Shown piece after piece: positions 30,636 to 60,732 of a stretch of DNA of 60,827 bases (its first letter is position 1; every line of letters starts with the position of its first letter). The notes under the pieces were generated by a model. That model ran no database searches, was not told the DNA's origin, and saw nothing but the letters and a program-made list of their open reading frames with translations. This stretch comes from an uncultured Bacteriovorax sp. (GTDB lineage Bacteria > Bdellovibrionota > UBA2428), in contig CAZXHL010000002.1 in NCBI GenBank assembly GCA_964640545.1, positions 1 to 60,827 on the forward strand, in the 5' to 3' direction. The position numbers were made by a program, and so were the translations under genes.

Positions 30636-30660
30636 ACCAACTGTTCCCGGCGCACAGTTA
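30636..30660. repeat. Right terminal inverted repeat of the IS
   Basis: ACCAACTGTTCCCGGCGCACAGTTA is the reverse complement of the left IR with one mismatch. Confidence 0.85.
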
Positions 30661-32469: not shown

Positions 32470-32559
32470 AAGATGGTTGAGCTTAGAACGGCTTGAAGTG
32501 TATCGCAATAGGATTTGGTCCTGCAAAAATGAAACTTAGCTGCTAAGATTGTGGGAGTC

Positions 32560-41765: not shown

Positions 41766-41811
41766 AATAAAAAATCCTTCAAGCCAATAGCAGCAAGACT
41801 TGGGCCAGTGT

Positions 41812-42732
41812 CTAATAACTACCCAATAGTTGGCGAGATTTGAGGATATCTTTTTGAATTTGCTGGGAAAGTGATTGGGGGCCATCGAATCGCATTTCGT
41901 CTCTTAACCTGTAAACAAATTCGACAGTTATTGATTTTTCATACAATTCTTCATTGAAATCTAACAAATGAGTTTCGAGTGATAATGGGTGCTTATCACC
42001 GAAGCTAGGCTTGCGGCCAATATTGCTAACGGCCTGATATCTGGTTCCGTCTTCAAGCCGAGCAAAGCAAGCATAGACCCCTGAAAACGGAAGACAATGA
42101 TCGCTTGGAAGCGAAAGATTTGCGGTAGGGAAGCCTAGTCGTCGACCTTGCTTATGGCCATGCACAACGGCGCCAGTCATGCTGTATCGTCTTCCGAGCA
42201 TGGCGTTCGCAATGTCCAGATCACCACTGGCTAAGGCTTGCCTGATTCCAGAGCTAGAAATCATGCCTTGCTTTGAAATTTTAACAGGATCAATCATTTC
42301 GGCTTGGATGCCTAATTCCGTCGCCCATTCGTAGAGTTTTTGTGGGCTACCGGTGCGTTGATAGCCAAAGTGAAAGTTTCTGCCCACACATATATAGGAG
42401 GGGTTCAGGCCTTCAATGAGAATCTTCTCAAAAAACTCCTTAGCAGGGGTCTGCGAGAAGTCTCGATTGAACTCAATGACTTTAACTTGGTCCACTCCGA
42501 GGTCTCTGATGAGCTTGATTCTGTCGTCAATTGAGCAGAGTTTCGGAGGGGCTTCTTGCGGGCGAAGTATGGCAACGGGGTGAGGATCAAAAGTGACGAC
42601 AACGCTCCTACAGCCCTTGTCTTCGCAAGTATCTCTAAAATTATTGATTTTGGAAATAAGGGCGGCATGACCCAAATGCACACCATCGAAGTTTCCTATG
42701 GTGATTGCAGACTTGGTGTTGGGTGAGGTCAT
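41812..42732 (-). CDS. ribF: Bifunctional riboflavin kinase / FMN adenylyltransferase
   Basis: IGNFDGVHLGHAALI, the PTANL block (GFPTANLSL) and the C-terminal riboflavin kinase motif LEFVYRLRDE. Confidence 0.85.
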   Translation of the reverse strand: MTSPNTKSAITIGNFDGVHLGHAALISKINNFRDTCEDKGCRSVVVTFDPHPVAILRPQEAPPKLCSIDDRIKLIRDLGVDQVKVIEFNRDFSQTPAKEFFEKILIEGLNPSYICVGRNFHFGYQRTGSPQKLYEWATELGIQAEMIDPVKISKQGMISSSGIRQALASGDLDIANAMLGRRYSMTGAVVHGHKQGRRLGFPTANLSLPSDHCLPFSGVYACFARLEDGTRYQAVSNIGRKPSFGDKHPLSLETHLLDFNEELYEKSITVEFVYRLRDEMRFDGPQSLSQQIQKDILKSRQLLGSY

Positions 42733-46872: not shown

Positions 46873-48330
46873 TTACAGGCAGATTTTTCTAGCGTCTAAA
46901 GATTGGGGGATTAGCACCCCGGCCTTTGCAAAAGATTTGCAGTATTTCTGCTTGTCTTTGATGGAAGAATGACCGAGAGATTTGAAAAAGACTTCCACGA
47001 GCAGTCGTGAGTTCCTCGATTTTTCATCCGTTTGAATGTGGGGAGAAAGTATCTCAACAACTTTGGCAGCATCTTTTCTGGCTGCGGCGGTTTTCGGAAA
47101 ATCATTCGATTTTAAAAATTCATAGATAATAATGGCCCGTTGAGTGTCAATCTCAACGACGAGTTGCTGCGTATCACTCCGATTTTTCTGTGTGTCGAGC
47201 AGGTCTGATGCTATTTCATAATGTTTGAGTGCATTTGAAAGAAGGCCTCTTTCTTGGAAATCAAGACCTTGTTGGTATTCAGTGTGTGCTCTCGCGATTC
47301 TCACCCAAGGATCTTTGGGGGATTTCTTCTGGGCCGTGCTAATGAAAGACTGGCCTTCCTCCTTGCGGCCAGAAAGCGCCAGGGCCAGTCCCCTTAGGGC
47401 TTGCGCACCAGCATCTTGTGGATGGTATTGGAGGGCTTGCTTCGCTACAAGAGCAGCGGTTATGTATTGTTTGTTCTGGATTTCGATATAAGCGTATTCC
47501 AGCGAAGCTTTGAGGTTATCAGGTTTTAGCTTGAACAATTGTCTAAGCAGGACAAGCAGTCGATCCTCTCGATTTCGTTTTCTGTAGTAATCAATCAAAT
47601 TTTCTACGACCAAAGGATCTGTAGGGTCAAGCTTGTTGAGTTCTTCATAGTATTCCACTGCTTTCTCTGGACGATTGTCGTGATAGTAGAGAAGGGCCAT
47701 GTTGTTCAAGGCTCTGACTTTGACATCTTTCGGGGTCTTCGGATCGTTAATGAGAGGGAGGAGAACTCTGCGGAACTCAGTTTCTCTTTGGGCGATTAAT
47801 TGAGCGCGAACGTTTCCAGAAGGAAGCGAACGGATTTTTTTTCCGATGACTGAGATCCAAAGATAAAATCTTCTGAGAATGAGATTGTAGTTGTCGCTTT
47901 CTTTCTTGATGGCTTTGTCATAGGAAGAGATCGCCAATTCTTCCTCGCCATTCTCCTCATAAAATTTGGCCAGCTGCTTTAGGGTTGTGGATGACTCTTT
48001 GAAGGAGTTGGGCGAATTGGCGAGGTTGAGATTGAATATTTGCATCTTCTTCTGAAGGCATGCCTGTAGGTAGCTGCGAGGCGTGTTGGTCTCGCGATGT
48101 TCAAGGGCGAGTTTGACGTTCGCAATTTGTGAGATGAGCTGGGCGAACATGGCTTCTCTTTTTTCGTTTGAATTGTGTTTCTCAGCTTCATTGAGTTGAT
48201 TGTCCGCCTCAAGACAGAGGGCTCGATCCTCATAGGGATTGGCCTGTGTTGTCGTGCTAAATAGCGCCATGGCAAAAATGAGGGGAAGCTTTCTAAGCCG
48301 CAGCAGTTTGATGTCGATTGGGGCTAACAT
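46873..48330 (-). CDS. Secreted TPR-repeat protein
   Basis: Signal peptide LPLIFAMALFSTTTQANP from ATG 48330, with multiple TPR units (EKAVEYYEELNKLDPTDP, AISSYDKAIKKESDN). Confidence 0.55.
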   Translation of the reverse strand: MLAPIDIKLLRLRKLPLIFAMALFSTTTQANPYEDRALCLEADNQLNEAEKHNSNEKREAMFAQLISQIANVKLALEHRETNTPRSYLQACLQKKMQIFNLNLANSPNSFKESSTTLKQLAKFYEENGEEELAISSYDKAIKKESDNYNLILRRFYLWISVIGKKIRSLPSGNVRAQLIAQRETEFRRVLLPLINDPKTPKDVKVRALNNMALLYYHDNRPEKAVEYYEELNKLDPTDPLVVENLIDYYRKRNREDRLLVLLRQLFKLKPDNLKASLEYAYIEIQNKQYITAALVAKQALQYHPQDAGAQALRGLALALSGRKEEGQSFISTAQKKSPKDPWVRIARAHTEYQQGLDFQERGLLSNALKHYEIASDLLDTQKNRSDTQQLVVEIDTQRAIIIYEFLKSNDFPKTAAARKDAAKVVEILSPHIQTDEKSRNSRLLVEVFFKSLGHSSIKDKQKYCKSFAKAGVLIPQSLDARKICL

Positions 48331-48431
48331 TACTAATATTGTTACATTTTTTACATGGCTTTGAAAGGTAGGAGCTTTGGCGCTTGGGGAAGGTGTCAAT
48401 ATTTTGCCGGCTTCTGAGCCTTAGGTGGCGT

Positions 48432-49952
48432 TCAGGATTTCTTTGCGACTCGAAAGCGAGTTTTGGGGCCAGCACCTTGTTTCTCCAGCAACTCTTCTGT
48501 AAAGGCTTCCTTGAGCCATTTTGTCGCAGTTCTTTGTGGAAGATTAAGGGCTTCGGAAACCTGAGTGCTGGAAACCCAGTTGTGTCCGCATGACTCTACG
48601 ATGTCGTGACAGAATTCAACAAGTTTGGAATCCAGAACCGAAGCATGGCGATCAATCACGAGTGACAGCGGCTGAGTCGCTTGAATACTAAAGTAATTTT
48701 TCTTTGAGGTGATTTGGATGGGGATGTCCGCTTCATCGAACCAAACATTCAATCGATAGACAATCTGATAGATTTTTCTGGGTGTTGAAATCAAGCTAAA
48801 ATAGGTCTCATTAAAAAGCTCATCATGGACCTTGTAGAGATCTAAAGGCCTATAAAAATCTCGGGTGATTAGGGCTAAAAATTTTTGGCTGAGTAAGTGA
48901 GGGCGCAAGGTTAGGTCTGTGAAAGAGTTTTCTCCAGTTTGGATGTTCAAGAAGTCTTCGCGTTCTTGGTTTATCTCGGGCCCCTGGCCAGCCGCACTCA
49001 GCGCCCAGCGATAAGTTGAAAACTCAGGAAAGTCTTTTTGGGAAAACTTTTCGAAATTTCTTACAATTTTCTCTCGGTAGTTAGTGAATGGAGTGCCGGT
49101 GTAGAGATACTCGAGCAGCTTGTCATCTTGTAGGTAAATGGCTTTGAGGTAGTCAGCATCGCGAACCATCTCGTAGTTTCTGATTCCAAGTGCGCCGCTT
49201 CTTAGTTCAGAGATTTCACTAGCGACGGAGTCATCAACTCCTTTTTGGTTAATTCTTTGAACGAGATCCCATTTTTTGATCATGAGAGTGTCAAAGATTG
49301 ACTTTGCGCCCATCAGTTCGATGGCATTATTCATATATTTTGTGGATTTGATGAAATCATTTTGCAAGACGTAGAATTGAGCTGCGAGCATCAGAACGTT
49401 TCTATGGTGGCGCTTAGTGGCTTCAGTGGAAGTTAGTCTAAGGAGATCATCGATCAGGGCAACAGTCTTCTCTGGTTCATCAATCACGATGTAGGACGAG
49501 AGCAGATTTACTTTTGCGGTAATTTTTGCGTAATCGTCGACCTCGGGGTGAGCAACAAAGTTCTCCAAAAGTGTAGCCGCATCGGTGTAGTTCCATCTGG
49601 TGATCTCAGCAAACGATGCGTAGAGAAATTTGTTCGGGTGTGCTGCACCATCTACGGAGTCTAGAATCTTGACGCCTTCATTAAGCGCTCCAAGCTTGAT
49701 GAGAGCCATGGCATATTCGATTCGCTCTTCTTCCGTTGGCTTTTGAGGATCTTTCGCTTTTGGCCTGACATAGGGGCGCAGCGCCTTTATGGCATCAGTT
49801 GTATTTCCAAGCCTTCTCGAAAGGTTTGCATATTGAGCCATAGATGAGCGCTTAAGGCTCTTTTGGTCAATGGTGCCTATCAAGCTTATCGCTTCCGCCA
49901 GGCTGGATGCCCGAATCAAATCATCAACTTCTTTTAGAAGATCTTCGCTCAT
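48432..49952 (-). CDS. Cytoplasmic TPR-like protein with C-terminal winged-helix DNA-binding domain (putative regulator)
   Basis: There is no signal peptide. N-terminal helical repeats are followed by the C-terminal end WVSSTQVSEALNLPQRTATKWLKEAFTEELLEKQGAGPKTRFRV, which looks like a wHTH. Confidence 0.45.
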   Translation of the reverse strand: MSEDLLKEVDDLIRASSLAEAISLIGTIDQKSLKRSSMAQYANLSRRLGNTTDAIKALRPYVRPKAKDPQKPTEEERIEYAMALIKLGALNEGVKILDSVDGAAHPNKFLYASFAEITRWNYTDAATLLENFVAHPEVDDYAKITAKVNLLSSYIVIDEPEKTVALIDDLLRLTSTEATKRHHRNVLMLAAQFYVLQNDFIKSTKYMNNAIELMGAKSIFDTLMIKKWDLVQRINQKGVDDSVASEISELRSGALGIRNYEMVRDADYLKAIYLQDDKLLEYLYTGTPFTNYREKIVRNFEKFSQKDFPEFSTYRWALSAAGQGPEINQEREDFLNIQTGENSFTDLTLRPHLLSQKFLALITRDFYRPLDLYKVHDELFNETYFSLISTPRKIYQIVYRLNVWFDEADIPIQITSKKNYFSIQATQPLSLVIDRHASVLDSKLVEFCHDIVESCGHNWVSSTQVSEALNLPQRTATKWLKEAFTEELLEKQGAGPKTRFRVAKKS

Positions 49953-50010: not shown

Positions 50011-51273
50011 CTAATACTTAAACTTAAATCCTAGTGAGTATAAGGCGTCTTCATCGCCATACTCTTGTGTATGTTGATTTCGGAAACGATACAGCCCGGT
50101 CGAAGCTGAAACTTTCTCTGACAAAGGAACGACTACTTCAGCACCAATTTTCTGATGTCCGGAAGAATTCACCTCTCCAAAAATCTCTAGTGAACAGTAT
50201 CCTGCAATGAGAGTTGCGCTTGCGCTGCAGTATGCTGCATTGTTCTCTTTCGTTAGACTGTTCCCCTGAAGTCCGGTTTCAACCATTGTTGAAATTTTTG
50301 TCTTTCCGTTGAGGTCAATTTGCATGATTCGGCCGACGCCTGCTTTTGCGGCGATATAAGCCTCTTCTTCCATATGGGCTACGTTCTCTAGACTTCCTCC
50401 TTGGGAAAGTTGGTTGTGCCAATATTTCTGGATGGATTGGCTAATTCCAGTATCATCTTTCTGGCAGCCAATCTCTCCTTCGAATCTCATGAAATAGGTA
50501 TCATTGCCGCTTGGATCTCGGCTCTTCACAACAGAGACATTGAGTGCATTTTGCTCCATTGATTCTTGGTATCTGCTGCCGTTGGCATTTCGACTATTGC
50601 CATCTACTGTAGTTGGTCTTGTATACAGGTGGCTCAACAGAGAATAGTTAACGCTGTCATTACCCCTTTTCACAAGAGCGTCTAGTTCCATCCCGAAGGT
50701 AAGGCCTGCTTTGTCATTTCCGGTATCTTTTATCCCGGCTTGGCTTAGGCCTCCATGAAGTCCGTTGTCGTTGATACTGTTGAAGCTTATAATCATTTCC
50801 CGCGAAGGACCTGACCCGGACTCCCTTTGTTGCTTGAACATGGCAATGAGATCGTCAGAAGGCTCTACTTGAACGTTAAGTAAATCTGGTTTCTTTATAC
50901 AGTGGGTGTTGTTTAAGAAGTTTTTTAGAAGCGGGTTCGCATTGATTTTAGAGACGAGATTGGATTTGTCGTTATCGCCCAGAACCGTTTTGTCTAAACT
51001 GATAATCTTTGTTTTCAGCTCTTCCAGGTTCCTACCAAAGGTTAGAATCTTAGCATTGGCATCTTTTAGGACCACGCCATTTTTATGCTCCATGATTGAA
51101 TGACCAGATGGGAATTCAACAGACGCTTTTGGGGACCTTTCTTCTTTACGAATACCCAGGTTCGCTATATCTGAATTTGCTGCATGCGATTGAGCCCGTA
51201 GTTCTTGACTCGATACTCCTGCTATTAATAGGCCATAGATTAAATATGCATTTATAGTTTTGTTTGCTTCCAT
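50011..51273 (-). CDS. Outer-membrane beta-barrel protein
   Basis: Signal peptide from ATG 51273 (AYLIYGLLIAGVSSQELRAQS), alternating-hydrophobicity strands in the C-terminal two thirds, and the terminal beta-signal ...YSLGFKFKY. Confidence 0.5.
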   Translation of the reverse strand: MEANKTINAYLIYGLLIAGVSSQELRAQSHAANSDIANLGIRKEERSPKASVEFPSGHSIMEHKNGVVLKDANAKILTFGRNLEELKTKIISLDKTVLGDNDKSNLVSKINANPLLKNFLNNTHCIKKPDLLNVQVEPSDDLIAMFKQQRESGSGPSREMIISFNSINDNGLHGGLSQAGIKDTGNDKAGLTFGMELDALVKRGNDSVNYSLLSHLYTRPTTVDGNSRNANGSRYQESMEQNALNVSVVKSRDPSGNDTYFMRFEGEIGCQKDDTGISQSIQKYWHNQLSQGGSLENVAHMEEEAYIAAKAGVGRIMQIDLNGKTKISTMVETGLQGNSLTKENNAAYCSASATLIAGYCSLEIFGEVNSSGHQKIGAEVVVPLSEKVSASTGLYRFRNQHTQEYGDEDALYSLGFKFKY

Positions 51274-51372
51274 ACCTAAATATTGCCTGAACGAGGAAGC
51301 CGGAGTAACCCACATTTCCGTGCTAGATTAAGATTGTATTAAGAGTGCTTTATGGCACCTCATCTTATTCCA

Positions 51373-51430
51373 ATATTAATTAAGCAGCACTTGTTAATGT
51401 CTCCTGGACTCTTGGGCGGGCATTATAAGA
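51373..51430 (+). promoter_or_regulatory. Conserved leader/operator-like motif upstream of lipoprotein paralog 1
   Basis: The imperfect inverted repeat ATTAATTAAG-N5-CTTGTTAAT and the block CTTGGGCGGGCATTATAAGA both recur upstream of paralog 2. Confidence 0.3.
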
Positions 51431-51432
51431 GT

Positions 51433-54400
51433 ATGGAAGATTCAATTGTTTATCTAAATAGTCTTAGACTGTCTCTAAAGTGTTTTCTGGCCCTATCTCT
51501 GCTTGCAGGATGTTTCGCTGGGCAAGGCACTCAAGATGTTGCTGACCGGGGTTCACATGTTGAGGTCTTCGAGCCTGGATTCTATGGTTACTCACCAACT
51601 AGTATCTCAGTAGTTTGGCCAGCGCCAGAGCCTTGGGTTGGATTTGAAGTCTTTAGAAATTTAGGCGGTGTCAGATCATCCATTCAAACATTGGTTTCTC
51701 AGTCTAGAGCCGTTGGGCTTAGTTCAAATTCTAGATATTCTCTTTCCTTATACGGTAGAGGTTTTAGTGGAGAGCTTTCTACAAATGTTCTTTTGCGGGG
51801 AAATCTAGAGACCTGGCCACTTTTCTCTATGTCTAGAGGCGTTAGTTTGCGGGAAGAAAAATTAGGTCCTGCAGGCGTTACTCTTGATATCAATTACGAT
51901 CCCTTCGTCATATTGCCTCCTGGTCCTGGGGTGAACGCATTAACACGTGCCGAGTGCTTCATTTCGGACATTCGTAATCCTGGCTCTGATCGACCGATCA
52001 CTGATCCGTTGGCACACCAACGTAGCTTTCTTGTCGCTCAGCAGTCACTTTTTATTGGCATCCGTGAAATTGAATTCTTAAATCCTAAAAGGGTTCAATG
52101 CCAAGTTAGGTACGCCGATGATACGGTAAGCGTCAGCAACAAGATCGCCACCCTACAAGCTTTCAGGGGCGGGGAGTATGGAGCTTGTGAGAATTCTGTG
52201 AACCAAGATGGTGGCTATTCATGTCAGCCCATGGTTTGCCCTCCTGGGCTAAACGATCCGGCTAGCTGCAATACGGCTGGGCCTTTTGAGCTCACTAGTA
52301 ATTCATGTTCGGCGTGGCTAAGTAAGAATTCAACTACGGGTTTGATCGAGGGAAGTCCTTCCAATCTTAATGTAGGATCTTGTTCTTATGAATACAAATT
52401 GTCGGGTTTAGGTGCTGTAGATATCATATCGCGAAAGCAACAAGTCACCGTAAGCAACTTACAACCCGTAGTTTCCATGAACGAGGTCAACGGGACGACG
52501 CCTATGAAACAAGTTAGCTCCAAAGCAACAATCGTTATTCGAGAACGTAGTCCTTCGGGCAGTGCCACTGGATCACATACATCTTCGGCAACGAACAAAA
52601 GTTTCGGAGCTGTCATGTCCTCTGATGGCACGGTTAGCCTTTCCGACGCCCAAGTTGAGAGCAATGAGGAAAGGCTTGCGATCAGCCGAGGCGTAGATAC
52701 AGGCGGAAGATACTCAGTAAGCCTTGGGTCTTGTGAGTCACATCTGAATCCAGGAAGTGGTTTTCGAGGAAAGGAATTTGAGATCAATGCTTTGACTGGA
52801 GCGATAAGCTTTAGAATGCGGGAGCATTTCTATGGGGAATGTGAAATTGAGATTCATTTTGATGATATGACAAATAGCGAGACAAGAACGGCAAGTGCGC
52901 TGCCTTTGCGGATTCGTGTATACCCAGTGAACGATGAACCCAAGCTCATTTTCTTCAATGGTGTGAAGCATAGCTCAGATGCCCTGAATGTGGATCGTTG
53001 TGGTACGAATTTGGATTCGTCTTGTTTGATTTCTGAGGAAATTGTTAGAGATATCAATATTTCGGGTGGAGTCCTGAGTGTTCCTGCGGGCCTTCAAGAA
53101 ACAAACTACAAGGAAGATCAGCCGGTTGCGATAAAAAATTCGATGGCTATAGTTCCGAACTCGATCGATGTAAATGAAGTTCTGATTCTCGATCCTGTGG
53201 CATCCAAAATGAATTGTACTACAAATTGTGAGCTCCAAATGGGAGATCAGTTGAGTGCGTTTGATTTTAAGATCAAAGAAGCGGCTGGAAGTGCCTCTGG
53301 CTCGTTTCAAATGGCTTACACACCTTTTAATCCCGACGTGAAACAAGTGAAAGCTAAAGTCACCTTTGAAGACGCGGGATACGCCTGCGAATACATTAAT
53401 TCTTTGAGTAGAGCAGAAGAAACCATCTGTGACTCAAACAATGAGGCGAAGCTTTTTGGAGGCAAAGAGTTTACGGCCGATTTGCATATTTATACGGGTG
53501 AGTTCATGGATCGGGATACTGATTTTATAGTGGCCTTCGATACCTCTTCCATGGGGGCTGCCGTCATTGAATCCGCAAAGGAAACCATTGCAACCTGGTA
53601 CGAGACGGAGCTTCCGATTTTAAGCCCTAAGAATCGTGGACGCTTGTTGTTTGTTCGAACGCTTGGGGTTCCGGCCAACTATGTTAAAGGTGATCCGTAC
53701 AATAGAGAGCGTTGGAACGATGTCTACCTTGCACAGGGCTTAAAGGTTGCTTATGGACACACACTCGGGAACATTGCCTATGGAAATGGAAGTCCAGATT
53801 ATGGTTCTTCAAGACAGGCACGTTTTGTGGACGTTGACGGGAATTCGCTTGTTGGGCGAGTCCCTTCTGGGAGCGATGTGAATGTCGATGCAGGGGACAA
53901 TGTCGCGATGATTGATGACATTACAGAATCACACCTGAATCAGATCACCTCTCAAGAGGGGCGTCATGTGTTTTTACTTTCATTTTGTGATGAAGCAGCT
54001 CCGCAGTTTCACTCGACTACCCTTGCTAAATTAAAAAACTCGGATCCTATCCCTCAATTTAGTGTCGAAAACCCAGCCGTTAATTTTGGAAGTTGGTTCA
54101 GCGCAACAGTGGCTCCCGGAACTCCGGGCGCAACTAAGGCACAAACCGTGGGTTATGAGTGCCGTACGGGAGTATGTGATCCTAGCTACGCTTATGGATA
54201 CGCACGATTCAAGCGATTCTACAGGCAGCTCAAGAACAATGGAGGATCTTTCAAGGGGATTGCCTATCCGATTGTGGCTCCTTCAAACGGAGGAAAGGAT
54301 TTTCTTCTTCACTCTATAGCAGCACTTTATGGAAGAAGCTTAACGGCAGAAGAGGCGGAGGCTTTGCCGCGAAATCCTGTCTTTACGCAGCAGCAATGGG

Positions 54401-54639
54401 ATGCCATGGTAGTTGCTTTGCAGGGACCTAATCCATTTGAGGACATAGTAGATCCGGCAGCACCATTCGAAAGCGCAGGCCTTATTCAATATGGCTGGAG
54501 CGGTAAATTTGATCGATTCTACATTTCATCAGGGCGGGCTGAAAATCATGCAGAGTATTTCGATCCAGGCGCTACGATTGAGGGAGAGCCGCTTCCCCTC
54601 GATCAGTTCACGGATGACATGCGATTTCTGCGTCCTTAG
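51433..54639 (+). CDS. Large surface-adhesin-like lipoprotein, paralog 1 (FN3 / Ig / cadherin-like / vWA-like C-terminus)
   Basis: I trimmed the start to ATG 51433 (MEDSIVYLNSLRLSLKCFLALSLLAGC lipobox). It has an FN3-like YSPTSISVVWPAP..., a He_PIG-like TGLIEGSPSNLNVGSC, a cadherin-like VYPVNDEP and C-terminal DFIVAFDTSSMG. Confidence 0.6.
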   Translation: MEDSIVYLNSLRLSLKCFLALSLLAGCFAGQGTQDVADRGSHVEVFEPGFYGYSPTSISVVWPAPEPWVGFEVFRNLGGVRSSIQTLVSQSRAVGLSSNSRYSLSLYGRGFSGELSTNVLLRGNLETWPLFSMSRGVSLREEKLGPAGVTLDINYDPFVILPPGPGVNALTRAECFISDIRNPGSDRPITDPLAHQRSFLVAQQSLFIGIREIEFLNPKRVQCQVRYADDTVSVSNKIATLQAFRGGEYGACENSVNQDGGYSCQPMVCPPGLNDPASCNTAGPFELTSNSCSAWLSKNSTTGLIEGSPSNLNVGSCSYEYKLSGLGAVDIISRKQQVTVSNLQPVVSMNEVNGTTPMKQVSSKATIVIRERSPSGSATGSHTSSATNKSFGAVMSSDGTVSLSDAQVESNEERLAISRGVDTGGRYSVSLGSCESHLNPGSGFRGKEFEINALTGAISFRMREHFYGECEIEIHFDDMTNSETRTASALPLRIRVYPVNDEPKLIFFNGVKHSSDALNVDRCGTNLDSSCLISEEIVRDINISGGVLSVPAGLQETNYKEDQPVAIKNSMAIVPNSIDVNEVLILDPVASKMNCTTNCELQMGDQLSAFDFKIKEAAGSASGSFQMAYTPFNPDVKQVKAKVTFEDAGYACEYINSLSRAEETICDSNNEAKLFGGKEFTADLHIYTGEFMDRDTDFIVAFDTSSMGAAVIESAKETIATWYETELPILSPKNRGRLLFVRTLGVPANYVKGDPYNRERWNDVYLAQGLKVAYGHTLGNIAYGNGSPDYGSSRQARFVDVDGNSLVGRVPSGSDVNVDAGDNVAMIDDITESHLNQITSQEGRHVFLLSFCDEAAPQFHSTTLAKLKNSDPIPQFSVENPAVNFGSWFSATVAPGTPGATKAQTVGYECRTGVCDPSYAYGYARFKRFYRQLKNNGGSFKGIAYPIVAPSNGGKDFLLHSIAALYGRSLTAEEAEALPRNPVFTQQQWDAMVVALQGPNPFEDIVDPAAPFESAGLIQYGWSGKFDRFYISSGRAENHAEYFDPGATIEGEPLPLDQFTDDMRFLRP

Positions 54640-54656
54640 AGTTGTTTTCTTAACAC

Positions 54657-54716
54657 GACATTAATCAAGCACAGACTTGTTAATGTCTTCATGCCGCTTG
54701 GACGGGCATTATAAGA
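54657..54716 (+). promoter_or_regulatory. Conserved leader/operator-like motif upstream of lipoprotein paralog 2
   Basis: GACATTAATCAAG-N6-CTTGTTAATGTC is an inverted repeat (12 of 13 positions), followed by CTTGGACGGGCATTATAAGA. Confidence 0.3.
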
Positions 54717-54774
54717 TTATGGGGTTCGTGCTGTACGTGTCTAGAACGTCACCCCGCAAGATCAGAGGTCCCAA

Positions 54775-57700
54775 ATGAAAAGTATGTATTCTCAAGCAAC
54801 TCGCGAAATTAAAGGGCTTAGCTTTTTTCAAAATATTCTGAATTGTTTATTGGTGCTTGGTGTATTGTCTGCTTGTCAGAAACAAGACGAGGCATCAGGG
54901 ACAGCTCAAGATAGTTTCGAAGAGGTGTTTGAGGAAGGGTTCTATGGGTTTTCTCCTACGAGTGTTTCAGTCGTTTGGAATACTCCGGATCCATGGGTGG
55001 GATATGAGGTCTATAGAAATTTGGATGGAGTTAAGACGACAATCCAAACCTTAGTTTCTCAGTCAAGAGCGATTGGTCTTTTGCCCAATACCTTTAATTC
55101 GCTCTCTCTCTATGGAAGGGATGTTTCGGGACAACTCTCTCAAAAAGTAATGATTAGAAAGAGCCTTCGGACTTGGCCGCTTTTTTCAATGTCTCAGGGA
55201 GTTAGTTTACGGGAAGAGAAATTTGGTCCTGCAGGTGTTACTCTAGATTTGAACTACAATCCCTTCGCAATATTGCCACCTGGCCCCGGGGTGAACGCAT
55301 TAACACGCGCTGAATGTTTTATTTCAGACATTCGTAATCCTGGCTCCGATCAGCCGATATCTGATCCCCTGGCGCACAAACGTAGCTTCCTCCTCGCTCA
55401 GCAATCACTTTTTATTGGCATTCGTGATATTGAATTCTTAAATACCAAGAGGGTCCAGTGCCAGGTTAGATACGCCGATGATACGTTAAGTATCAGTAAC
55501 AAGGTTGCTACGCTTCAAGCTTTTAGAGGTGGTGAGTATGGAGCCTGTGAGAATTCGGTAAATCAAGAAGGCAGTTACTCTTGCCAGCCTATGGTCTGTC
55601 CGCCTGGTTCGAGCGATCCAGCTAGCTGCAATACGGCAGGTCCTTTTGAACTAACAAGTAATTCTTGTTCGGCGTGGCTAAGTATGAATTCTACTACGGG
55701 TTTGATCGAGGGTAGCCCATCGAATCTGGATGTCGAATCTTGCTCATTTGAGTACGCGTTGTCGGGTTTGGGTGCCGCTGACATTATCGCTCGTCGGCAA
55801 CATGTTGGCATTAACAATCTGCAGCCCGTACTTTCAGTTCATGAAATCAATGGAACTACACCTATGAAACAAGTTAGCTCCAAAGCAACAATCGTCATTC
55901 GAGAACGCAGTCCTGCAGGCAGTGCAACGGGAGTGCATACCACTTCTGCAGCTAACAAAAGCTTCGGTGCTGTAATGTCCTCTAATGGCACGGTTAGCCT
56001 CTCCGACGCGCAAGTTGAGAGCAATGAAGAAAAGTTTGCTAGAAGTCGCGGCGTCGATACAGGCGGCAGATACTCCGTCCACCTTGGATCTTGCGAGTCT
56101 CATCTGAATCCGGGTAGCGGCTTCCGGGGAAGAGAATTTGAGATCGATGCTTTGACTGGAGCGATAAGCTTTAGAATGCGTGAGCATTTCTATGGAGAAT
56201 GTGAAATTGAGATTCATTTTGATGATTTCACGAATAGCGAGACAAGGATGGCAAGTGCGCTACCTTTGAGAATTCGTGTCTACCCGGTTAACGATGAACC
56301 CAAGCTTATCTTCTACAACGGAGAGAGGCATAACTCAGATCCATTGAATGTGGATCGTTGCGGCTCAAATCTGGACTCGTCTTGCTTGATTTCTGAGGAA
56401 ATTGTTCGTGATATCAATATTTCTGGTGGAATATTGAGTGTTCCTTCGGGCCTTCAAGAAACAAACTACAAGGAGGATCAGGCTGTTTCGATAAAGGGGA
56501 CTCCGATATCGAGAGTTGCTAGTGGTATCGCTACTGCCGTCTTATTTCAGCCGGAGGGGTCGGATCCTGTAGCGAGGAGAATGGATTCCTACTGTACACC
56601 GTCTGGCACAAATTGTGATCTTAGTCCTGGGGATACCTTGCAGGCCGATGATTTCACGCTTGGAGAAGCTGCTTCTAGTTCAGCCGGGTCTTTCCAAGTT
56701 GCCTATACCCCGTTCAATCCTGATGTGAAGCAGGTCGAAGTTGAGGTGGTTTTTGAGGATGGTGGTTACCCCTGTGATGAAATTAATTCTTTAGCGAGAT
56801 CTGGAGAGGTGATTTGTGATTCAGCTAACGAGAGCAGCCTTTTTGGAACTAAGGAGTTTTTGGCAAAACTACTCATTCATACGGGTGAGTTCATGGATCG
56901 GTATACTGACTTCCATGTTGTCTACGATTCAACATCAATGGGAGAGAATACAATCGTCAGTTTAAAAGCCACCATCCAGGAATGGTTTGATGAAAAGTTG
57001 CCTGTTTTGTCTCCAAAACATCGCGGAGAGATATTTCATAGAATTAGCGCTGGAGGGGGGCCTATTAGCGATAATGGAGAATTTAATTATATTGACTCCA
57101 ATGGTGAGCTAAAAAATCTGACTAACGCTGAACGATGGGTGGACATGTATCTGGACCACACACTCAAAGCGGCCTACTCGACAGACGCAGCTTTAAGAAC
57201 TGCAATGCCCGATCCCAAGACAGAAGACCTAAATGCTTTGAGGGCAGCAGATGGGACAGTCATCACAAACTATAGAGTTCCCTTGGGCGACGCCCCATAC
57301 GATGCCACTTTTAATACTATTTTGAGTAAGAAAAAGATCATGCTTCTGTCTTTTTGTGATGAAACAAATGATCGTTACCATTCAGGAACTATGGCGGGTC
57401 GATACAATAGTGATGTATCGACTTATCAGATCAGGGACTCTTTAATGGAGGTGCAGTTTGATGCCTTTAATCATGATGTTGAAAATTTCGTAAGAATCAA
57501 AAATAAGTTAGCTAGCTTTAGGGGGATTGCATTTCCAATTGTAACTCCTGGGAATGGGCGAAAAGATCTTGCCGTTCAAACCTTGGCGGCTCTTATGGGG
57601 CCTAAAGTTCGGGAGGATAACGTTGATTCGTACATGGGGGAGAGAAACCTCCTTTTTACGCTCGATCAATGGCAAAAGGTGAGGTCAGCGCTTCTCAGTT

Positions 57701-57966
57701 CTAGCAATCCATTTAAAGTTACACCGTCGGGCTGGACTGCCCCAGTCTTCGACAACTTAGAAGACTTAGGCTGGACTGGAAACTTTAGCAGATACTACCT
57801 CAATGGCTCCGGTCGAAACCCTAGCTCTATACCGGCAAACGACCCCTGCTGGAGCGACTCTGATATCGAATGCTATCCAGGTGCCCGGTTCTCTGATGAG
57901 GCTTTAGATCAAGACGTGATGACGCTGGAGCAGTTTGAGGCGGATATGCGTGTACTGCGAAACTAA
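54775..57966 (+). CDS. Large surface-adhesin-like lipoprotein, paralog 2
   Basis: Lipobox GVLSAC. Its N-terminal half is collinear with paralog 1 at a constant 3360-nt offset. The C-terminal half is divergent but keeps DFHVVYDSTSMG, MLLSFCDET and FRGIAFPIV. Confidence 0.6.
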   Translation: MKSMYSQATREIKGLSFFQNILNCLLVLGVLSACQKQDEASGTAQDSFEEVFEEGFYGFSPTSVSVVWNTPDPWVGYEVYRNLDGVKTTIQTLVSQSRAIGLLPNTFNSLSLYGRDVSGQLSQKVMIRKSLRTWPLFSMSQGVSLREEKFGPAGVTLDLNYNPFAILPPGPGVNALTRAECFISDIRNPGSDQPISDPLAHKRSFLLAQQSLFIGIRDIEFLNTKRVQCQVRYADDTLSISNKVATLQAFRGGEYGACENSVNQEGSYSCQPMVCPPGSSDPASCNTAGPFELTSNSCSAWLSMNSTTGLIEGSPSNLDVESCSFEYALSGLGAADIIARRQHVGINNLQPVLSVHEINGTTPMKQVSSKATIVIRERSPAGSATGVHTTSAANKSFGAVMSSNGTVSLSDAQVESNEEKFARSRGVDTGGRYSVHLGSCESHLNPGSGFRGREFEIDALTGAISFRMREHFYGECEIEIHFDDFTNSETRMASALPLRIRVYPVNDEPKLIFYNGERHNSDPLNVDRCGSNLDSSCLISEEIVRDINISGGILSVPSGLQETNYKEDQAVSIKGTPISRVASGIATAVLFQPEGSDPVARRMDSYCTPSGTNCDLSPGDTLQADDFTLGEAASSSAGSFQVAYTPFNPDVKQVEVEVVFEDGGYPCDEINSLARSGEVICDSANESSLFGTKEFLAKLLIHTGEFMDRYTDFHVVYDSTSMGENTIVSLKATIQEWFDEKLPVLSPKHRGEIFHRISAGGGPISDNGEFNYIDSNGELKNLTNAERWVDMYLDHTLKAAYSTDAALRTAMPDPKTEDLNALRAADGTVITNYRVPLGDAPYDATFNTILSKKKIMLLSFCDETNDRYHSGTMAGRYNSDVSTYQIRDSLMEVQFDAFNHDVENFVRIKNKLASFRGIAFPIVTPGNGRKDLAVQTLAALMGPKVREDNVDSYMGERNLLFTLDQWQKVRSALLSSSNPFKVTPSGWTAPVFDNLEDLGWTGNFSRYYLNGSGRNPSSIPANDPCWSDSDIECYPGARFSDEALDQDVMTLEQFEADMRVLRN

Positions 57967-57994: not shown

Positions 57995-58021
57995 GGCCTT
58001 AACAAAGTTGTTGTTGAGGCC
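57995..58021 (+). terminator. Hairpin after paralog 2, weak U-tract
   Basis: GGCCTTAACAA, loop AGTTG, TTGTTGAGGCC (one G-U pair). Only TT follows. Confidence 0.3.
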
Positions 58022-58101
58022 TTAACCCAAACTAAATCTAGCATCAACTTGTGATTCGAAGGTGGTGCTTCGTTTTCATATACTAAAAGAGTAGCCAAGA
58101 G

Positions 58102-60732
58102 ATGAGACGAAAATATGGCTTCTTAAAAAATGAAGGTATTGAGAAAATTATGGAAACACTTAGAAAAAATAAAAAAGTCTTCAAACAACAATCTTTCATG
58201 ATTTTTTGTGGAGGTCTCTCCATTCTTCTTAGTTCATGTATTCCTACTCAGAGCACCTCTCAAGTTACTAGCGTCTCGGGTTCGGTGTGGGGGATATCAC
58301 CTAAAACAGTGCAACTCTCTTGGGGGGAGTCTACCACCGCGGACTACTACGATATTATCCCCCGGGATTCCACAGACTCTCAGATTCAAAGTCGATATAA
58401 CGAAACCTTTATTAGTGACCTGCCAAAGCAATCAGCTTCATTTTTCTACTCAGTGTTTGGAGTGAGGGGGCAAGGCGTTCGTGATAAAGCACCGCTGTTC
58501 CAAGCGCAGTTCAAGCCATGGACAGACTTTAAGGATGTTGATTTCTCTTTCGAGCAATTTGGTTTGTACACAAGAATCTATTGGAGCTATGCACCGTGGG
58601 AAGAGGGTTTGCCGCTTTCGTTGAATGCTGAGAGCAATACCATCGCCGAATGTGCTTTCACAAAAAACCTAGAATCTCAAGACCCTTTCAAGGAGGCGGA
58701 CACCAAAACCGTGCTTGATTTCGCTGCTAGCCAAGAACTCACGCTAGCTCCTGATACCTTAGATCCTTATAAAGCTCATTTGTTCTCGTGCCGAATCAAG
58801 TTTATTGATGAATATGTTTCTCAGTCCCAGATAAATGCGACTCTTCCTCCACTTTTAACGTTGGGAAAAAATTGCCTAAGAGAAGTTGAGGCGGGCTCGT
58901 CGTACGCTTGTGAATTGAGTTTGCATGACAATGATCCAAACCTTGAGCTGGATGAGAATCGAAACCGAATTTCAATGGATCAAGTTAGTTTTGCAAAGTT
59001 AGTAGATCGGTACACATTTACTTTACAGAACTCGTCAACTTGTCTTTGGGCTACTCAGCCCAATGTTAACGATGAAATCGTCTCTAAAAATGGTCGACCG
59101 TCAGCCTCCGAAGATTTACCAGGAGGCGCAAAAGAGCACAATTGCAATCTTGACATCGCTCTTGCATTTTCTGACGATGACAACAATTCGAGCACGGACC
59201 CCGAGCTCTTTGCGCCGATCAATTGGCCGCAGACATATCAACAACCTGTGAAAGTAGTAATGCCTCCTGCATTTAGAGTGTTTCCGTCATTGGCCGTAAG
59301 GGCCCCCGCGGGAGCCCTTGGTTATTGTGGGACTCTTGCATGTTCTGATGTTCCTCAGCCAGAAATCGAAGGCGCTGACATCATTTCTGATTTTGGAAAG
59401 GGTAGCAATTTTTACTTTGGTGGAGATCAGGCTTTCATTGCTGATGGTGTGAATCGTTTGTACGGACTGCCTCTGGAGGCCAATTTTGATAGGATCGCTA
59501 TGACAAAAAAGTCTGATCGAGCACTTGTCATTCCTAAAGCTAAAATCACAAATATGATTACTTTGGACCTATTGGATGTGGACAGTTCTGAATACTATTT
59601 GGGAGACTTATTTCGTTTGCCATTTCGTCCGTACGTTGCTACTCGCGGCGGAGCTAAGGAAAGCTTGGAACGAAGTGCAGTCGGGGAGCATTTTGAAAAT
59701 GGTGTGATTGAGGCAAGTTCTGTGAAGTTTGTCATGCCTTCTACTGGATATCTGGAATCCTTTTTGGGTGGCTCTAGTTTCTATATGGATTCGGCGGCAG
59801 GGTCAGACTTTGGTTTCTATGAGAATCTAGATGATCTGCCTGAAGACTTGGTTAGAAATACTGTTTCTCCTACAGGAGCATCGACTAAAAACGCTTTCTC
59901 CAATTTGATCTATAGAGATGGTGGGGGCACGATTGCGGCTCAAGCTGGTGACCCAAATGCGGTTCCTTGGTATTTTCGATGTGTAGGAGATGTGGTTCTT
60001 GATCGACCGCTTGCTTTGGTCGGTCTTCCTCCAACGGCCGGTGAAGATGTTAGAGGTGCCATCTTCATCGAGACAGATGAAAAGAAGGGTTGCCGGATTT
60101 ACTCTACAAAAAGTATCTTCATTCAGGGCCACATTGTTCCCTTTAAAAAGGTTAGCAATCCTTCAAATGGAAGTGTTGTTCCAGAATTGCTTGGCGATTC
60201 AACTTTGATTCAGCTCTCTAGTGCGCGGGCCGTGGTTTTTGGTTTTTCGGATGTTGTGGGTGTGGATGGGACATTGAGCGACTATGATTCGGTTAATGAA
60301 ACGAGGGGAAGCCTGGGGCCTTTGGGTACAGGAAACGATTCAATCATTAGAACCTCTTCTGCTTCCGGCGGCGCTTTGCAGAGTGCAATTGTGAGTGATG
60401 CTCTGGCCAGCGGATCCATGAATCCAAATATCTTTCGCTATTCAGACGATACGATCGACGCTTTGGTTGCATATAATCCAGCTAGCCCTTATGCCAATGT
60501 CTATAAATCCGGCTCTGGTGAGAATCTTTTCATGGGGAGAAACCTAGTTGTTCATGCTCCCCTAGTGTTGTGGAACTACACTGGAGTGTTCACAGGCAGC
60601 GTGATTGCTGAAATAGCTCTATTCCCGAAAGGATTGAGGTTTGTTTCGGGTAATGCACAAGCGTACTCAGCGGAAGACGCTGTTCTACCTCTCTACAAGG
60701 GCAGCTTGCGACCATTAACGGTGATTGATTGA
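58102..60732 (+). CDS. Large lipoprotein, distant third paralog with unrelated C-terminal region
   Basis: Lipobox LLSSC. It has an FN3-like SPKTVQLSWGEST and a second domain AECAFTKN...FSCRIKFIDEYVSQSQINATL parallel to AECFISDI...QCQVRYADDTVSVSNKIATL of paralog 1. The start is ATG 58102 or 58150. Confidence 0.5.
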   Translation: MRRKYGFLKNEGIEKIMETLRKNKKVFKQQSFMIFCGGLSILLSSCIPTQSTSQVTSVSGSVWGISPKTVQLSWGESTTADYYDIIPRDSTDSQIQSRYNETFISDLPKQSASFFYSVFGVRGQGVRDKAPLFQAQFKPWTDFKDVDFSFEQFGLYTRIYWSYAPWEEGLPLSLNAESNTIAECAFTKNLESQDPFKEADTKTVLDFAASQELTLAPDTLDPYKAHLFSCRIKFIDEYVSQSQINATLPPLLTLGKNCLREVEAGSSYACELSLHDNDPNLELDENRNRISMDQVSFAKLVDRYTFTLQNSSTCLWATQPNVNDEIVSKNGRPSASEDLPGGAKEHNCNLDIALAFSDDDNNSSTDPELFAPINWPQTYQQPVKVVMPPAFRVFPSLAVRAPAGALGYCGTLACSDVPQPEIEGADIISDFGKGSNFYFGGDQAFIADGVNRLYGLPLEANFDRIAMTKKSDRALVIPKAKITNMITLDLLDVDSSEYYLGDLFRLPFRPYVATRGGAKESLERSAVGEHFENGVIEASSVKFVMPSTGYLESFLGGSSFYMDSAAGSDFGFYENLDDLPEDLVRNTVSPTGASTKNAFSNLIYRDGGGTIAAQAGDPNAVPWYFRCVGDVVLDRPLALVGLPPTAGEDVRGAIFIETDEKKGCRIYSTKSIFIQGHIVPFKKVSNPSNGSVVPELLGDSTLIQLSSARAVVFGFSDVVGVDGTLSDYDSVNETRGSLGPLGTGNDSIIRTSSASGGALQSAIVSDALASGSMNPNIFRYSDDTIDALVAYNPASPYANVYKSGSGENLFMGRNLVVHAPLVLWNYTGVFTGSVIAEIALFPKGLRFVSGNAQAYSAEDAVLPLYKGSLRPLTVID

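Follow-up and report, generated by a model that had tools for sequence, protein, structure and literature searches.

Tandem lipoprotein paralogs of an uncultured Bacteriovorax sp. with a stalk probably re-homogenised by gene conversion and diverged, phage tail-tip-like heads

This work concerns two tandem genes for large lipoproteins, P1 and P2, and a third gene, P3, that follows them in a contig of an uncultured Bacteriovorax sp. (CAZXHL010000002.1). The stretch of DNA analysed, here called the window, is 60,827 nucleotides (nt) long, and the three genes are co-oriented large open reading frames (ORFs) near its 3′ end. An inspection of the bare sequence (the original prediction) had described P1 and P2 as lipoprotein paralogs with conserved N-terminal and strongly diverged C-terminal halves, arranged as a cassette-like mosaic. 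Our data favour P1 and P2 being old tandem duplicates whose adhesin-like lipoprotein stalk was re-homogenised by gene conversion and whose heads diverged, and we put the probability of this reading at about 0.6. The three genes are:

51433–54639, + strand: P1, type-A lipoprotein of 1068 amino acids (aa), from the ORF list and the JGI gene calls starting at MEDS
54775–57966, + strand: P2, type-A lipoprotein of 1063 aa, from the ORF list and BLASTP
58102–60732, + strand: P3, type-B lipoprotein of 876 aa, from BLASTP, hidden Markov model (HMM) and family alignment

The first in-frame ATG of P1 lies further upstream, at 51352, and gives a mechanical ORF of 1095 aa, from which positions called "P1 ORF residues" below are counted. 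The true start is very probably the ATG at 51433 and not that at 51352, because the segment 51364–51432 is homologous to the non-coding leaders of P2 and P3; the JGI gene callers also begin P1 at 51433 (1068 aa). In all three products a basic n-region and a hydrophobic h-region, read from the sequence, precede the lipobox, which is LLAGC in P1 (Cys27 at 51511–51513), VLSAC in P2 (Cys34) and LLSSC in P3, and its cysteine is invariant in nine of nine aligned family members. The +2 residues are F, Q and I in P1, P2 and P3, respectively, and not Asp; under the rule known from E. coli, a +2 residue other than Asp is compatible with outer-membrane sorting. We infer that the three proteins are located at the outer membrane or surface.

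The P1–P2–P3 arrangement was recovered in independent NCBI, ENA (L001, L041) and JGI (L002) assemblies at 99.96–99.98% identity, which argues against an assembly artefact, either the tandem joining of two strain variants of a single gene or the collapse of paralogs into chimeras. Several assemblies do break at the end of the repeat block, with metagenome contigs (among L042–L046) that begin at 56282–56484, the distal end of the block, and these starts, like the end of the window ~95 nt past P3, are assembly breaks at repeats. However, identity between the copies is no more than ~80%, no perfect run exceeds 35 nt, and their signal peptides and leaders are distinct, so that we consider an artefact highly improbable.

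The constant offset of 3360 nt at which the original prediction had aligned P1 and P2 was recovered: 51565–53130 against 54925–56490 gives 1246 identical positions out of 1566 (79.6%), with no insertions or deletions (indels). Matches per 60-nt window range from 32 to 57 over 51565–53130 and stand at the random level, 14–17 of 60, from 53140 onward. The near-identical stretch noted at 52801–52860 against 56161–56220 was reproduced (58/60), as was the 35-nt perfect run starting at 52501, and further perfect runs of 34, 30 and 28 nt start at 52787, 52837 and 53087. The sharp divergence with indels described past ~53135 was likewise found, protein identity dropping there to ~35%, and the 21-mer ACGGGTGAGTTCATGGATCGG, said to be identical in both genes, has its sole occurrences at 53494 and 56881. 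Overall, the P1 and P2 products are 59% identical over ~1100 columns with 10% gaps (BLASTP), and every sizeable gap is located after P1 ORF residue ~582. The picture of tandem lipoprotein paralogs with a conserved β-sandwich stalk and a strongly diverged distal domain therefore stands, but that of conserved N-terminal halves does so only in part: the central block is alike, while the first ~100 mature residues are 69% identical and saturated at silent sites. Divergence is not uniform along the genes: identity and synonymous divergence both differ between segments.

To separate descent from protein constraint, silent positions alone were compared in a codon alignment of P1 and P2, with four-fold sites counted under identical residues; a match of 27% is expected by chance from base composition. 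The segments that the comparison singles out are:

51841–53135, + strand: putative homogenised central block of P1 (constant-offset identity 83%, maximum chi-square, four-fold sites)
55201–56495, + strand: putative homogenised central block of P2 (constant-offset identity, maximum chi-square)
52768–52866, + strand (partner 56128–56226): tract that appears to be the most recently shared, P1 aa 446–478 (silent codons)

In the centre (P1 ORF residues 142–593, nt ~51775–53130), four-fold sites match at 97 of 184 positions (52.7%), compared with 8 of 30 (26.7%) in P1 ORF residues 40–141, a segment that is indel-free and 69% identical at the protein level, and 23 of 78 (29.5%) in the C-terminal half (P1 ORF residues 594–1095). 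Fisher tests of the centre against the two flanks gave p = 0.01 and 7e-4. Whole-codon identity at conserved residues is 62.5% in the centre and 39%, 48% and 29% in the other segments. A two-breakpoint maximum chi-square search placed the raised silent identity at P1 aa 137–696 (nt 51841–53520), where synonymous-codon identity is 61% against 32% outside (permutation p ≤ 0.005); it fades by ~53520, and the indel-free part already ends at ~53135. As a control we used P0003 and P0004, a pair of family members from another genome, in which saturation extends evenly over the genes (27% four-fold match) and no segment stands out significantly (p = 0.87). Protein identity in the centre is 86% for P1–P2 versus 49% for P0003–P0004, and in the head 36.5% versus 36.9%. 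Judged by their ends, P1 and P2 would thus stem from an old duplication, but their centre seems younger, which points to mosaic ancestry by recombination; this most simply indicates gene conversion between the tandem copies. The corrected four-fold-site distance in the block is ~0.75, so the main homogenising event would not be recent, and dN/dS (the ratio of nonsynonymous to synonymous divergence) in the block is 0.02–0.13. P0003 and P0004 pair together in every segment, and the duplications therefore look lineage-specific in each genome; they are the only outgroups, so that the topology is uninformative.

These data bear on a history with no recombination, in which one old duplication was followed by very unequal constraint, with the head and the first domain evolving fast or under diversifying selection. 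The very low dN/dS of the centre and the high amino-acid divergence of the ends suit such a history, and the pattern is common in surface proteins. Protein constraint, however, does not lower synonymous divergence, and silent sites are unsaturated only in the centre (53% versus ~27%), one of the saturated flanks being the indel-free one with 69% protein identity. Neither does the control pair have such heterogeneity, and SNPs (single-nucleotide polymorphisms) within the block copy the base of the other paralog, as described below. The claim that the heterogeneity exceeds uneven protein constraint is borne out by synonymous divergence that differs between segments, and we regard unequal constraint alone as improbable.

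Silent identity within the block is itself patchy, in agreement with what had been seen by eye: runs of 30 synonymous-capable codons hold from 9 to 28 identical codons. The poorest run (9 identical) covers P1 residues 312–356 (p = 0.007), and the richest (28 identical) covers P1 residues 446–478, nt 52768–52866 (permutation p = 0.014), and includes the 58/60 stretch. Codon shuffling showed that the sum of squares of perfect-run lengths is unusual (p = 0.01) and that the single longest run is unexceptional (p = 0.23). For a population comparison we used ENA and JGI contigs (L001, L002, L041–L046) that are 99.96–100% identical to the window. Nine distinct SNPs against the window were found, at 51732, 55209, 56370, 56376, 56385, 49578, 53461, 53556 and 57695, the first five of which fall within the paralogous block. 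Four of these five change to the base of the other paralog (51732 T>C, 55209 A>G, 56376 C>T and 56385 C>T); 56376 and 56385 are on the same contig, 9 nt apart, and 51732 is present in two independent assemblies. The SNP at 53461 (G677S in P1) is present in three. Because the paralogs differ at ~20% of block sites, the binomial chance of four paralog matches in five is ~1e-3, or 6e-3 if the adjacent pair is one event, and lies overall between ~1e-3 and 7e-3. This suggests that the exchange of short conversion tracts continues. The silent-site mosaic, the patchiness and the paralog-matching SNPs together make gene conversion, which had been proposed from the patches of identity, a well-founded reading. 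The sampled copies in public assemblies are at least 99.9% identical and differ by at most one amino acid, and are essentially one population.

The same silent-site mosaic is predicted by a relatively recent duplication after which both ends of one copy, the head especially, were replaced from a diverged foreign allele. Over long times the family does swap C-terminal modules, with types A and B found on one N-terminal module, and transposase-like genes flank the loci. On the other hand, the heads of P1 and P2 are the closest known relatives of each other (36.5% identity versus 26–32% to P0003 and P0004), and the 1.84 billion representative proteins searched contained nothing resembling a donor. 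The block excludes both ends rather than one, and the short paralog-matching SNP tracts indicate exchange within the genome. We judge replacement of the ends to be unlikely, and gene conversion in the centre is retained as the preferred account.

The conserved part of the proteins is predicted to be a stalk of β-sandwich domains. From the N-terminus, the domain order is lipid anchor, FN3-like domain, second sandwich, He_PIG-like immunoglobulin (Ig) domain, cadherin-like domain, a poorly modelled segment and a distal head of ~360 residues. Three segments could be delimited on the DNA:

54922–55539, + strand: P2 residues ~50–255, two β-sandwich domains, FN3-like and then Cys-containing, which make up the N-terminal module found in every family member, P3 included (AlphaFold, Foldseek)
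53473–54639, + strand: C-terminal α/β head of P1, phage tail-tip-like (motifs TDFIVAFDTSSMG, LLSFCDE..FH, FKGIAYPIV, IAALYGR, NPF, YGWSGKF)
56860–57966, + strand: C-terminal α/β head of P2 (model on an 18-sequence alignment; BFVD match)

The full-length AlphaFold model of P2 has a predicted local distance difference test score (pLDDT) of ~85 for residues 50–250 and is poor beyond ~250, and Foldseek with the modelled N-terminal region returned FN3, cadherin and Ig arrays. The He_PIG-like Ig domain lies at P2 aa ~258–350 and the Big_9/cadherin-like domain at P2 aa ~405–510, ending in VYPVNDEP, both of them inside the central block; VNDxP at the end of a domain is typical of cadherin-like repeats. 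Pfam He_PIG scores 15.0 and 16.6 bits on P1 and P2 against a cut-off of 24 (weak, E = 0.011 in P2). A P1/P2 profile matches multi-repeat proteins bearing He_PIG, Big_9 and Cadherin_5 (E down to 4e-24), at profile positions ~278–395 and ~429–561. The family profile gave a weak match to FN3 chains in the PDB (E = 0.0014), and a PDB sequence search with P1 and P2 gave no match. The invariant cysteines across nine aligned members lie within the first 330 residues.

Relatives are very few. No family scored above threshold on P1, P2 or P3 in Pfam, NCBIfam or PHROGs, and word-indexed searches of 5.8 billion proteins, with a single protein and with a nine-sequence profile, returned only the query and its paralog. 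Pattern scans with family alignments gave no confirmed relatives in 185,579 GTDB species-representative genomes, nor in JGI metagenome contigs, a collection evidently without samples that carry the locus. An HMMER search of the 1.84 billion representative proteins found 49 proteins in four groups. The first consists of P0003 (E = 7e-92) and P0004 (E = 6e-85), the sole other full-length type-A members, which come from one genome and lie 7 kb apart on a single 2.73-Mb metagenomic contig. Members of the second (P0010, P0012, P0013 and P0045) share only their N-terminal 300–530 residues with P1 and P2; in P0010, P0012 and P0013 the N-terminal ~530 aa are common with P1/P2 and the C-terminal module is of the P3 type. 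The third holds the multi-repeat proteins with He_PIG, Big_9 and Cadherin_5, and matches of the fourth are confined to the last ~350 residues, the head. P3 itself is 22% identical to P2 over 219 aa (E = 4e-4, BLASTP) and carries the N-terminal ~330-aa module common to the family (module HMM E = 1e-94), with a C-terminal module that differs from that of P1/P2 (CxGDV... / HAP...GSxIAExALF). These comparisons describe a very small, modular family in which a single N-terminal module is combined with either of two C-terminal modules, type A or type B. P3 is 31% identical over its full length (E = 1e-98) to the gene after P0004 in the second genome, and the order type A then type B is therefore kept across the two genomes. 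The type-B module (~490 residues in P3) is conserved in six proteins (P3, P0010, P0012, P0013, P0045 and L004:13518-15971) with the invariant motifs C-x-G-D, T-D-x-x-G-C and A-P...Y-x-G-x-x-x-G-S-x-I-A-x-x-A-L, and has no Pfam or PDB sequence match. No family members or gene fragments besides P1–P3 were found in the window.

The fourth group connects the head to phages. Each of its proteins is a fragment or a portion of a very large phage protein: two of ~2000 aa, P0023 and P0025, contain Pfam crAss_MUZ (E = 4e-48 and 2e-29), shorter ones fall in phrog_37948 and phrog_15100 ("virion structural protein"), and P0027 matches Flavobacterium phage FpV4 and is 37.5% identical to the 2289-aa gp042 of Cellulophaga phage phi4:1, a virion protein verified by mass spectrometry and encoded beside a tail protein. 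With an assumed library size of 1.8e9, an HMM of the four bacterial heads still detected the phage proteins (E = 1e-15 to 1e-10), with colinear sub-hits on three motif regions, and hhalign of bacterial-only against phage-only alignments gave a probability of 100% and E = 3e-39 over 231 columns. Bacterial and phage copies share seven motifs, TD-x-x-[VA]-x-x-D-[TS]-[ST]-[SG]-[SM], ERW, [LI]-x-F-x-[DN]-E...Y-H, F-x-G-I-x-Y-P-I-V, H-x-[IL]-A-A-x-x-G, N-P-[YF] and Y-[GN]-W-x-G-K-x-[ND]-[KR]. These profile comparisons show homology between the P1/P2 head and a domain that Bacteroidota phages carry in their tail-tip (muzzle) and virion proteins. The link is visible only via profiles and the phage-side query P0027; a direct tblastn search of GenBank phages with the P2 head was negative. 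Pfam had no model at E ≤ 0.01 on 18 bacterial and phage head sequences, and a PDB profile search with the head domain found nothing.

The model of the P2 head, built on the 18-sequence alignment, has a pLDDT of 74.5 and a predicted template modelling score (pTM) of 0.80. Its order, β1-α1-β2-β3-...-β4-α-β5-α, is Rossmann-like and would be compatible with a von Willebrand factor A (vWA) fold. Weak Foldseek neighbours include the vWA proteins collagen VI, Sec24 trunk, ANTXR1, factor B and integrin β (E ≥ 0.07, template modelling score 0.2–0.33); in BFVD, a protein of marine Virus NIOZ-UU157 ranks first (E = 1.2e-5), ahead of weak VWFA and SGNH matches. Four phage homologues have D-x-S-G-S after strand 1, a site resembling a metal ion-dependent adhesion site (MIDAS). 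A vWA-like binding fold is thus plausible for the head as modelled. Alternatively, the head could be an enzyme acting on envelope polymers (an esterase, hydrolase or similar), so that the paralogs would be surface-tethered enzymes with the same mosaic evolution. The F-x-[DN]-E...Y-H residues are invariant or nearly so, YPIV and NPY are conserved across bacterial and phage copies, and weak fold matches include the SGNH-type esterase ChoE and phage SGNH hydrolases. Yet these esterase and hydrolase matches are not significant (E = 0.1–1), vWA-type binding domains, including viral VWFA proteins, are at least as frequent among the weak matches, and DxSGS follows strand 1 in some phage copies as it does in MIDAS sites. 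An enzymatic head seems doubtful to us, though worth bearing in mind. Whichever its activity, the P1 and P2 heads keep all core motifs and differ in long loops, including a 33-residue insertion in P1, which are the low-confidence parts of the model; this pattern fits a conserved fold with different surfaces.

In the history that we propose, the starting point would be an old tandem duplication of a gene restricted to this lineage, whose product is large, lipid-anchored, adhesin-like and probably exposed at the surface. After the duplication, non-reciprocal recombination between the copies would have re-homogenised the central ~1.3–1.7 kb: one or more events of intermediate age would have been followed by younger ones that affected shorter tracts, and the process is probably still active. 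The stalk would then have stayed alike under strong purifying selection (dN/dS 0.02–0.13). Conversion would have spared the first FN3-like domain and the head, which diverged to silent-site saturation, and the cell would display two heads, three with P3, on a common base. A surface location, ligand binding by the head and distinct specificities of P1 and P2 would follow the same line of thought, and the analogy with adhesins and receptor-binding proteins drawn in the original prediction gains indirect support from the adhesin-repeat-like central domains and the phage tail-tip-like head.

Several points weigh against this account. There are two sequences per genome, and conversion of the centre is not formally separable from replacement of both ends by diverged alleles; the flanks offer few silent sites (30 and 78 four-fold sites). 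Ongoing exchange is deduced from five SNPs in short-read metagenome assemblies, in which read cross-talk between paralogs is possible. For the head, Foldseek against the PDB found no significant match (best E = 0.07), the MIDAS motif is degenerate (D-T-S-S-M in P1 and D-S-T-S-M in P2, with Met at the fifth position), and the conserved D/N-E...Y-H residues could equally mean an enzyme.

We compared the proteins with several known systems. Like the phage muzzle and virion proteins (crAss-like MUZ, phi4:1 gp042 and FpV4), which are ~1800–2300 aa long with the head-like domain near their C-terminus, P1 and P2 have a ~260–360-residue head with the same motif order. Unlike them, P1 and P2 are chromosomal lipoproteins with a β-sandwich stalk, without the ring-joining, β-propeller and "crass fold" parts, and their heads bear large extra loops. 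Of the Pfam models crAss_MUZ (PF25731) and crAss_MUZ_C (PF25729), crAss_MUZ has no match on P1 or P2 at E ≤ 0.1; P1 and P2 were accordingly rejected as muzzle proteins, with one accessory domain in common. The muzzle of PhiCrAss001 sits at the tail tip, probably contacts the cell surface, and varies in length via surface insertions (PMC10172136). Its solved structure gave no sequence or fold match to the head, and the shared domain would therefore be an accessory insertion of other crass-like and marine phages.

Among bacterial systems, the Bdellovibrio MIDAS adhesins Bd0875 and Bd1483 are L-shaped proteins of ~380 aa with the MIDAS domain inserted in a small β domain (Tyson et al. 2024, PMC11003981). 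P1 and P2 resemble them in having a lipobox, a β-rich part, an α/β domain, for which a vWA fold is only a possibility in P1/P2, and several paralogs, and the source organism here may be a relative, but P1 and P2 differ in their length of ~1060 aa, long stalk, terminal head and degenerate MIDAS-like motif; NCBIfam NF052240 (MIDAS adhesin) has no hit on P1 or P2. The MAT chimeric fibres of Bdellovibrio, surface proteins that occur as paralogs, have a proximal part that is conserved and tips that vary and resemble phage tails (Caulton et al. 2024, PMC10769870). The concept of a conserved base with phage-like tips is similar, whereas P1 and P2 are lipoproteins of globular β-sandwich domains with no trimeric fibre repeats evident, and NF053851 (MAT) on P1 is not significant (E = 0.047, 13.5 bits versus a cut-off of 60). 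Membership in either Bdellovibrio family was rejected, as the scores are far under the cut-offs. The central domains match the repeats of Ig/cadherin-like multi-repeat adhesins (E = 1e-24 to 1e-5), but P1 and P2 hold single copies and not long arrays.

Partial gene conversion between paralogs of surface proteins is known from Neisseria opa, Anaplasma msp2 and Borrelia vls. As in these systems, non-reciprocal exchange would homogenise one part in short tracts and leave other parts diverged. Unlike them, the locus has no archive of silent cassettes with an expression site, and both copies are complete with their own signal peptide and leader. The cassette-like swapping proposed in the original prediction found no support, as the C-terminal halves are homologous and colinear, and what sets them apart is substitutions and indels in loops. 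Searching the window with P1, P2 and P3 (tblastn) returned the three full genes only, with no silent or partial cassettes, and no flanking inverted repeats of note were found at the locus. No evidence was found of programmed or high-frequency variation at P1/P2, and a cassette or archive variation system was rejected on three grounds: silent cassettes are absent from the window, P1 and P2 are both complete, and copies from what is essentially one population showed no strain variation.

Each gene is preceded by a copy of a ~73-nt element:

51364–51436, + strand: upstream element of P1, direct repeat D2, ending on the P1 start codon
54649–54722, + strand: upstream element of P2 (direct repeat, three-way alignment)
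58021–58094, + strand: upstream element of P3, a diverged copy (three-way alignment)

The element has two boxes, TTAAT.AAGCA...ACTTGTTAATGTCT and CTTGG.CGGGCATTATAAGAGTATGG. The P1 copy is 85% identical to 54675–54722 (direct repeat D2), and a three-way alignment of the P1, P2 and P3 leaders shows conserved columns. The second box has only two sites in the window, in the P1 and P2 leaders, against 0.01 expected by chance. This suggests separate, co-regulated starts for the three genes, and the element may act as a promoter or operator. A promoter and terminator consensus scan gave fewer hits than shuffled sequences and no promoter assignable to the element; sigma-70, sigma-54 and sigma-28 readings of it were rejected, as the spacing does not fit (sigma-54 and sigma-28 by eye). 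The element is not recognisable before the homologues in the second genome, and Rfam found no RNA family in the window. In the P2 leader (54719–54778), the ATG homologous to the P1 start opens a 19-codon upstream ORF whose TGA overlaps the P2 start codon (ATGA, 54775–54778), and P2 has a 56-nt leader that is absent from P1; the upstream ORF may serve translational coupling or be an indel relic.

The window is chromosomal, with genes for PilQ, FliD, AspS, HisS, RibF, HtpX and phosphonate transport. AspS (30658–32526, − strand) has a best identity of 49% among species-representative genomes sharing an 8-mer, and 11–12 of the 34 confirmed loci, including most of the best, are metagenome-assembled genomes of Bdellovibrionales, Bacteriovoracaceae or Bacteriovoracales. 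The source lineage is poorly sampled and, on this tentative placement, probably a deep-branching relative of the Bdellovibrionota. Divergent from P1 lies a gene (50011–51315, − strand) for a 434-aa signal-peptide protein with no family match, whose C-terminal aromatic end, ...GFKFKY, is a β-barrel-like signature. Beyond it are genes for two tetratricopeptide repeat (TPR) proteins of ~507 aa (48432–49952 and 46873–48399, both − strand), one with a weak C-terminal winged-helix-like match (Sso10a, E = 0.01). The 434-aa and TPR proteins are possible partners or regulators of the lipoprotein genes. Elsewhere in the window, a 444-aa ORF (40551–41885, − strand) has a sub-threshold match to the NCBIfam "MIDAS family adhesin" of Bdellovibrio (E = 6e-7, 28.9 bits versus a cut-off of 700) and a weak DUF2460 match (E = 1.5e-4). 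In a longer contig, the gene directly 3′ of P3 (L043:4355-5143) encodes a Zn-ribbon/helix-turn-helix protein that is 58% identical to the window ORF 29536–30621, which has a weak, below cut-off match to IS1-family transposases (E = 3e-9); a transposase-like gene family thus appears to be repeated at the flanks of the locus. In the second genome, an ISL3 transposase gene precedes P0003 (L003:8140-9399), MotA/MotB genes lie between the two type-A genes, and P0004 is followed by the 818-aa type-B homologue of P3 and then a 702-aa Laminin_G_3 protein (L004:13518-18108). Apart from the family genes, no synteny was found between the window and loci L003/L004.

A conserved stalk, a diverged head and gene conversion form a pattern that is already well known for surface proteins. 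The most interesting element of the locus, which may belong to a predatory lineage, is an uncurated head domain common to lipoproteins and phage tail tips. We can entertain, as a speculative and rather unlikely idea, that P1–P3 are a prey- or partner-recognition set of a deep-branching, Bdellovibrionota-like and possibly predatory bacterium, in which a receptor-contacting accessory domain from the tail tips of Bacteroidota phages was co-opted as the head on a lipid-anchored stalk. If so, divergence of the heads after tandem duplication would widen the range of envelopes recognised, ongoing conversion would keep the stalks interchangeable for a common docking or export partner, and a phage host-recognition module would have been reused by a bacterium for cell–cell recognition. 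The locus defines a very rare, unannotated protein family and offers a clean, small case of partial concerted evolution in which silent-site data and population SNPs agree; with more strains, the lengths and boundaries of conversion tracts could be measured against domain borders. Finally, the head, which has neither a Pfam model nor a solved structure, links chromosomal lipoproteins to the host-contacting tail tip of crass-like and marine phages of Bacteroidota. This link offers a way into the function of an uncharacterised part of these abundant phages, and into the possible reuse of phage recognition modules by bacteria.

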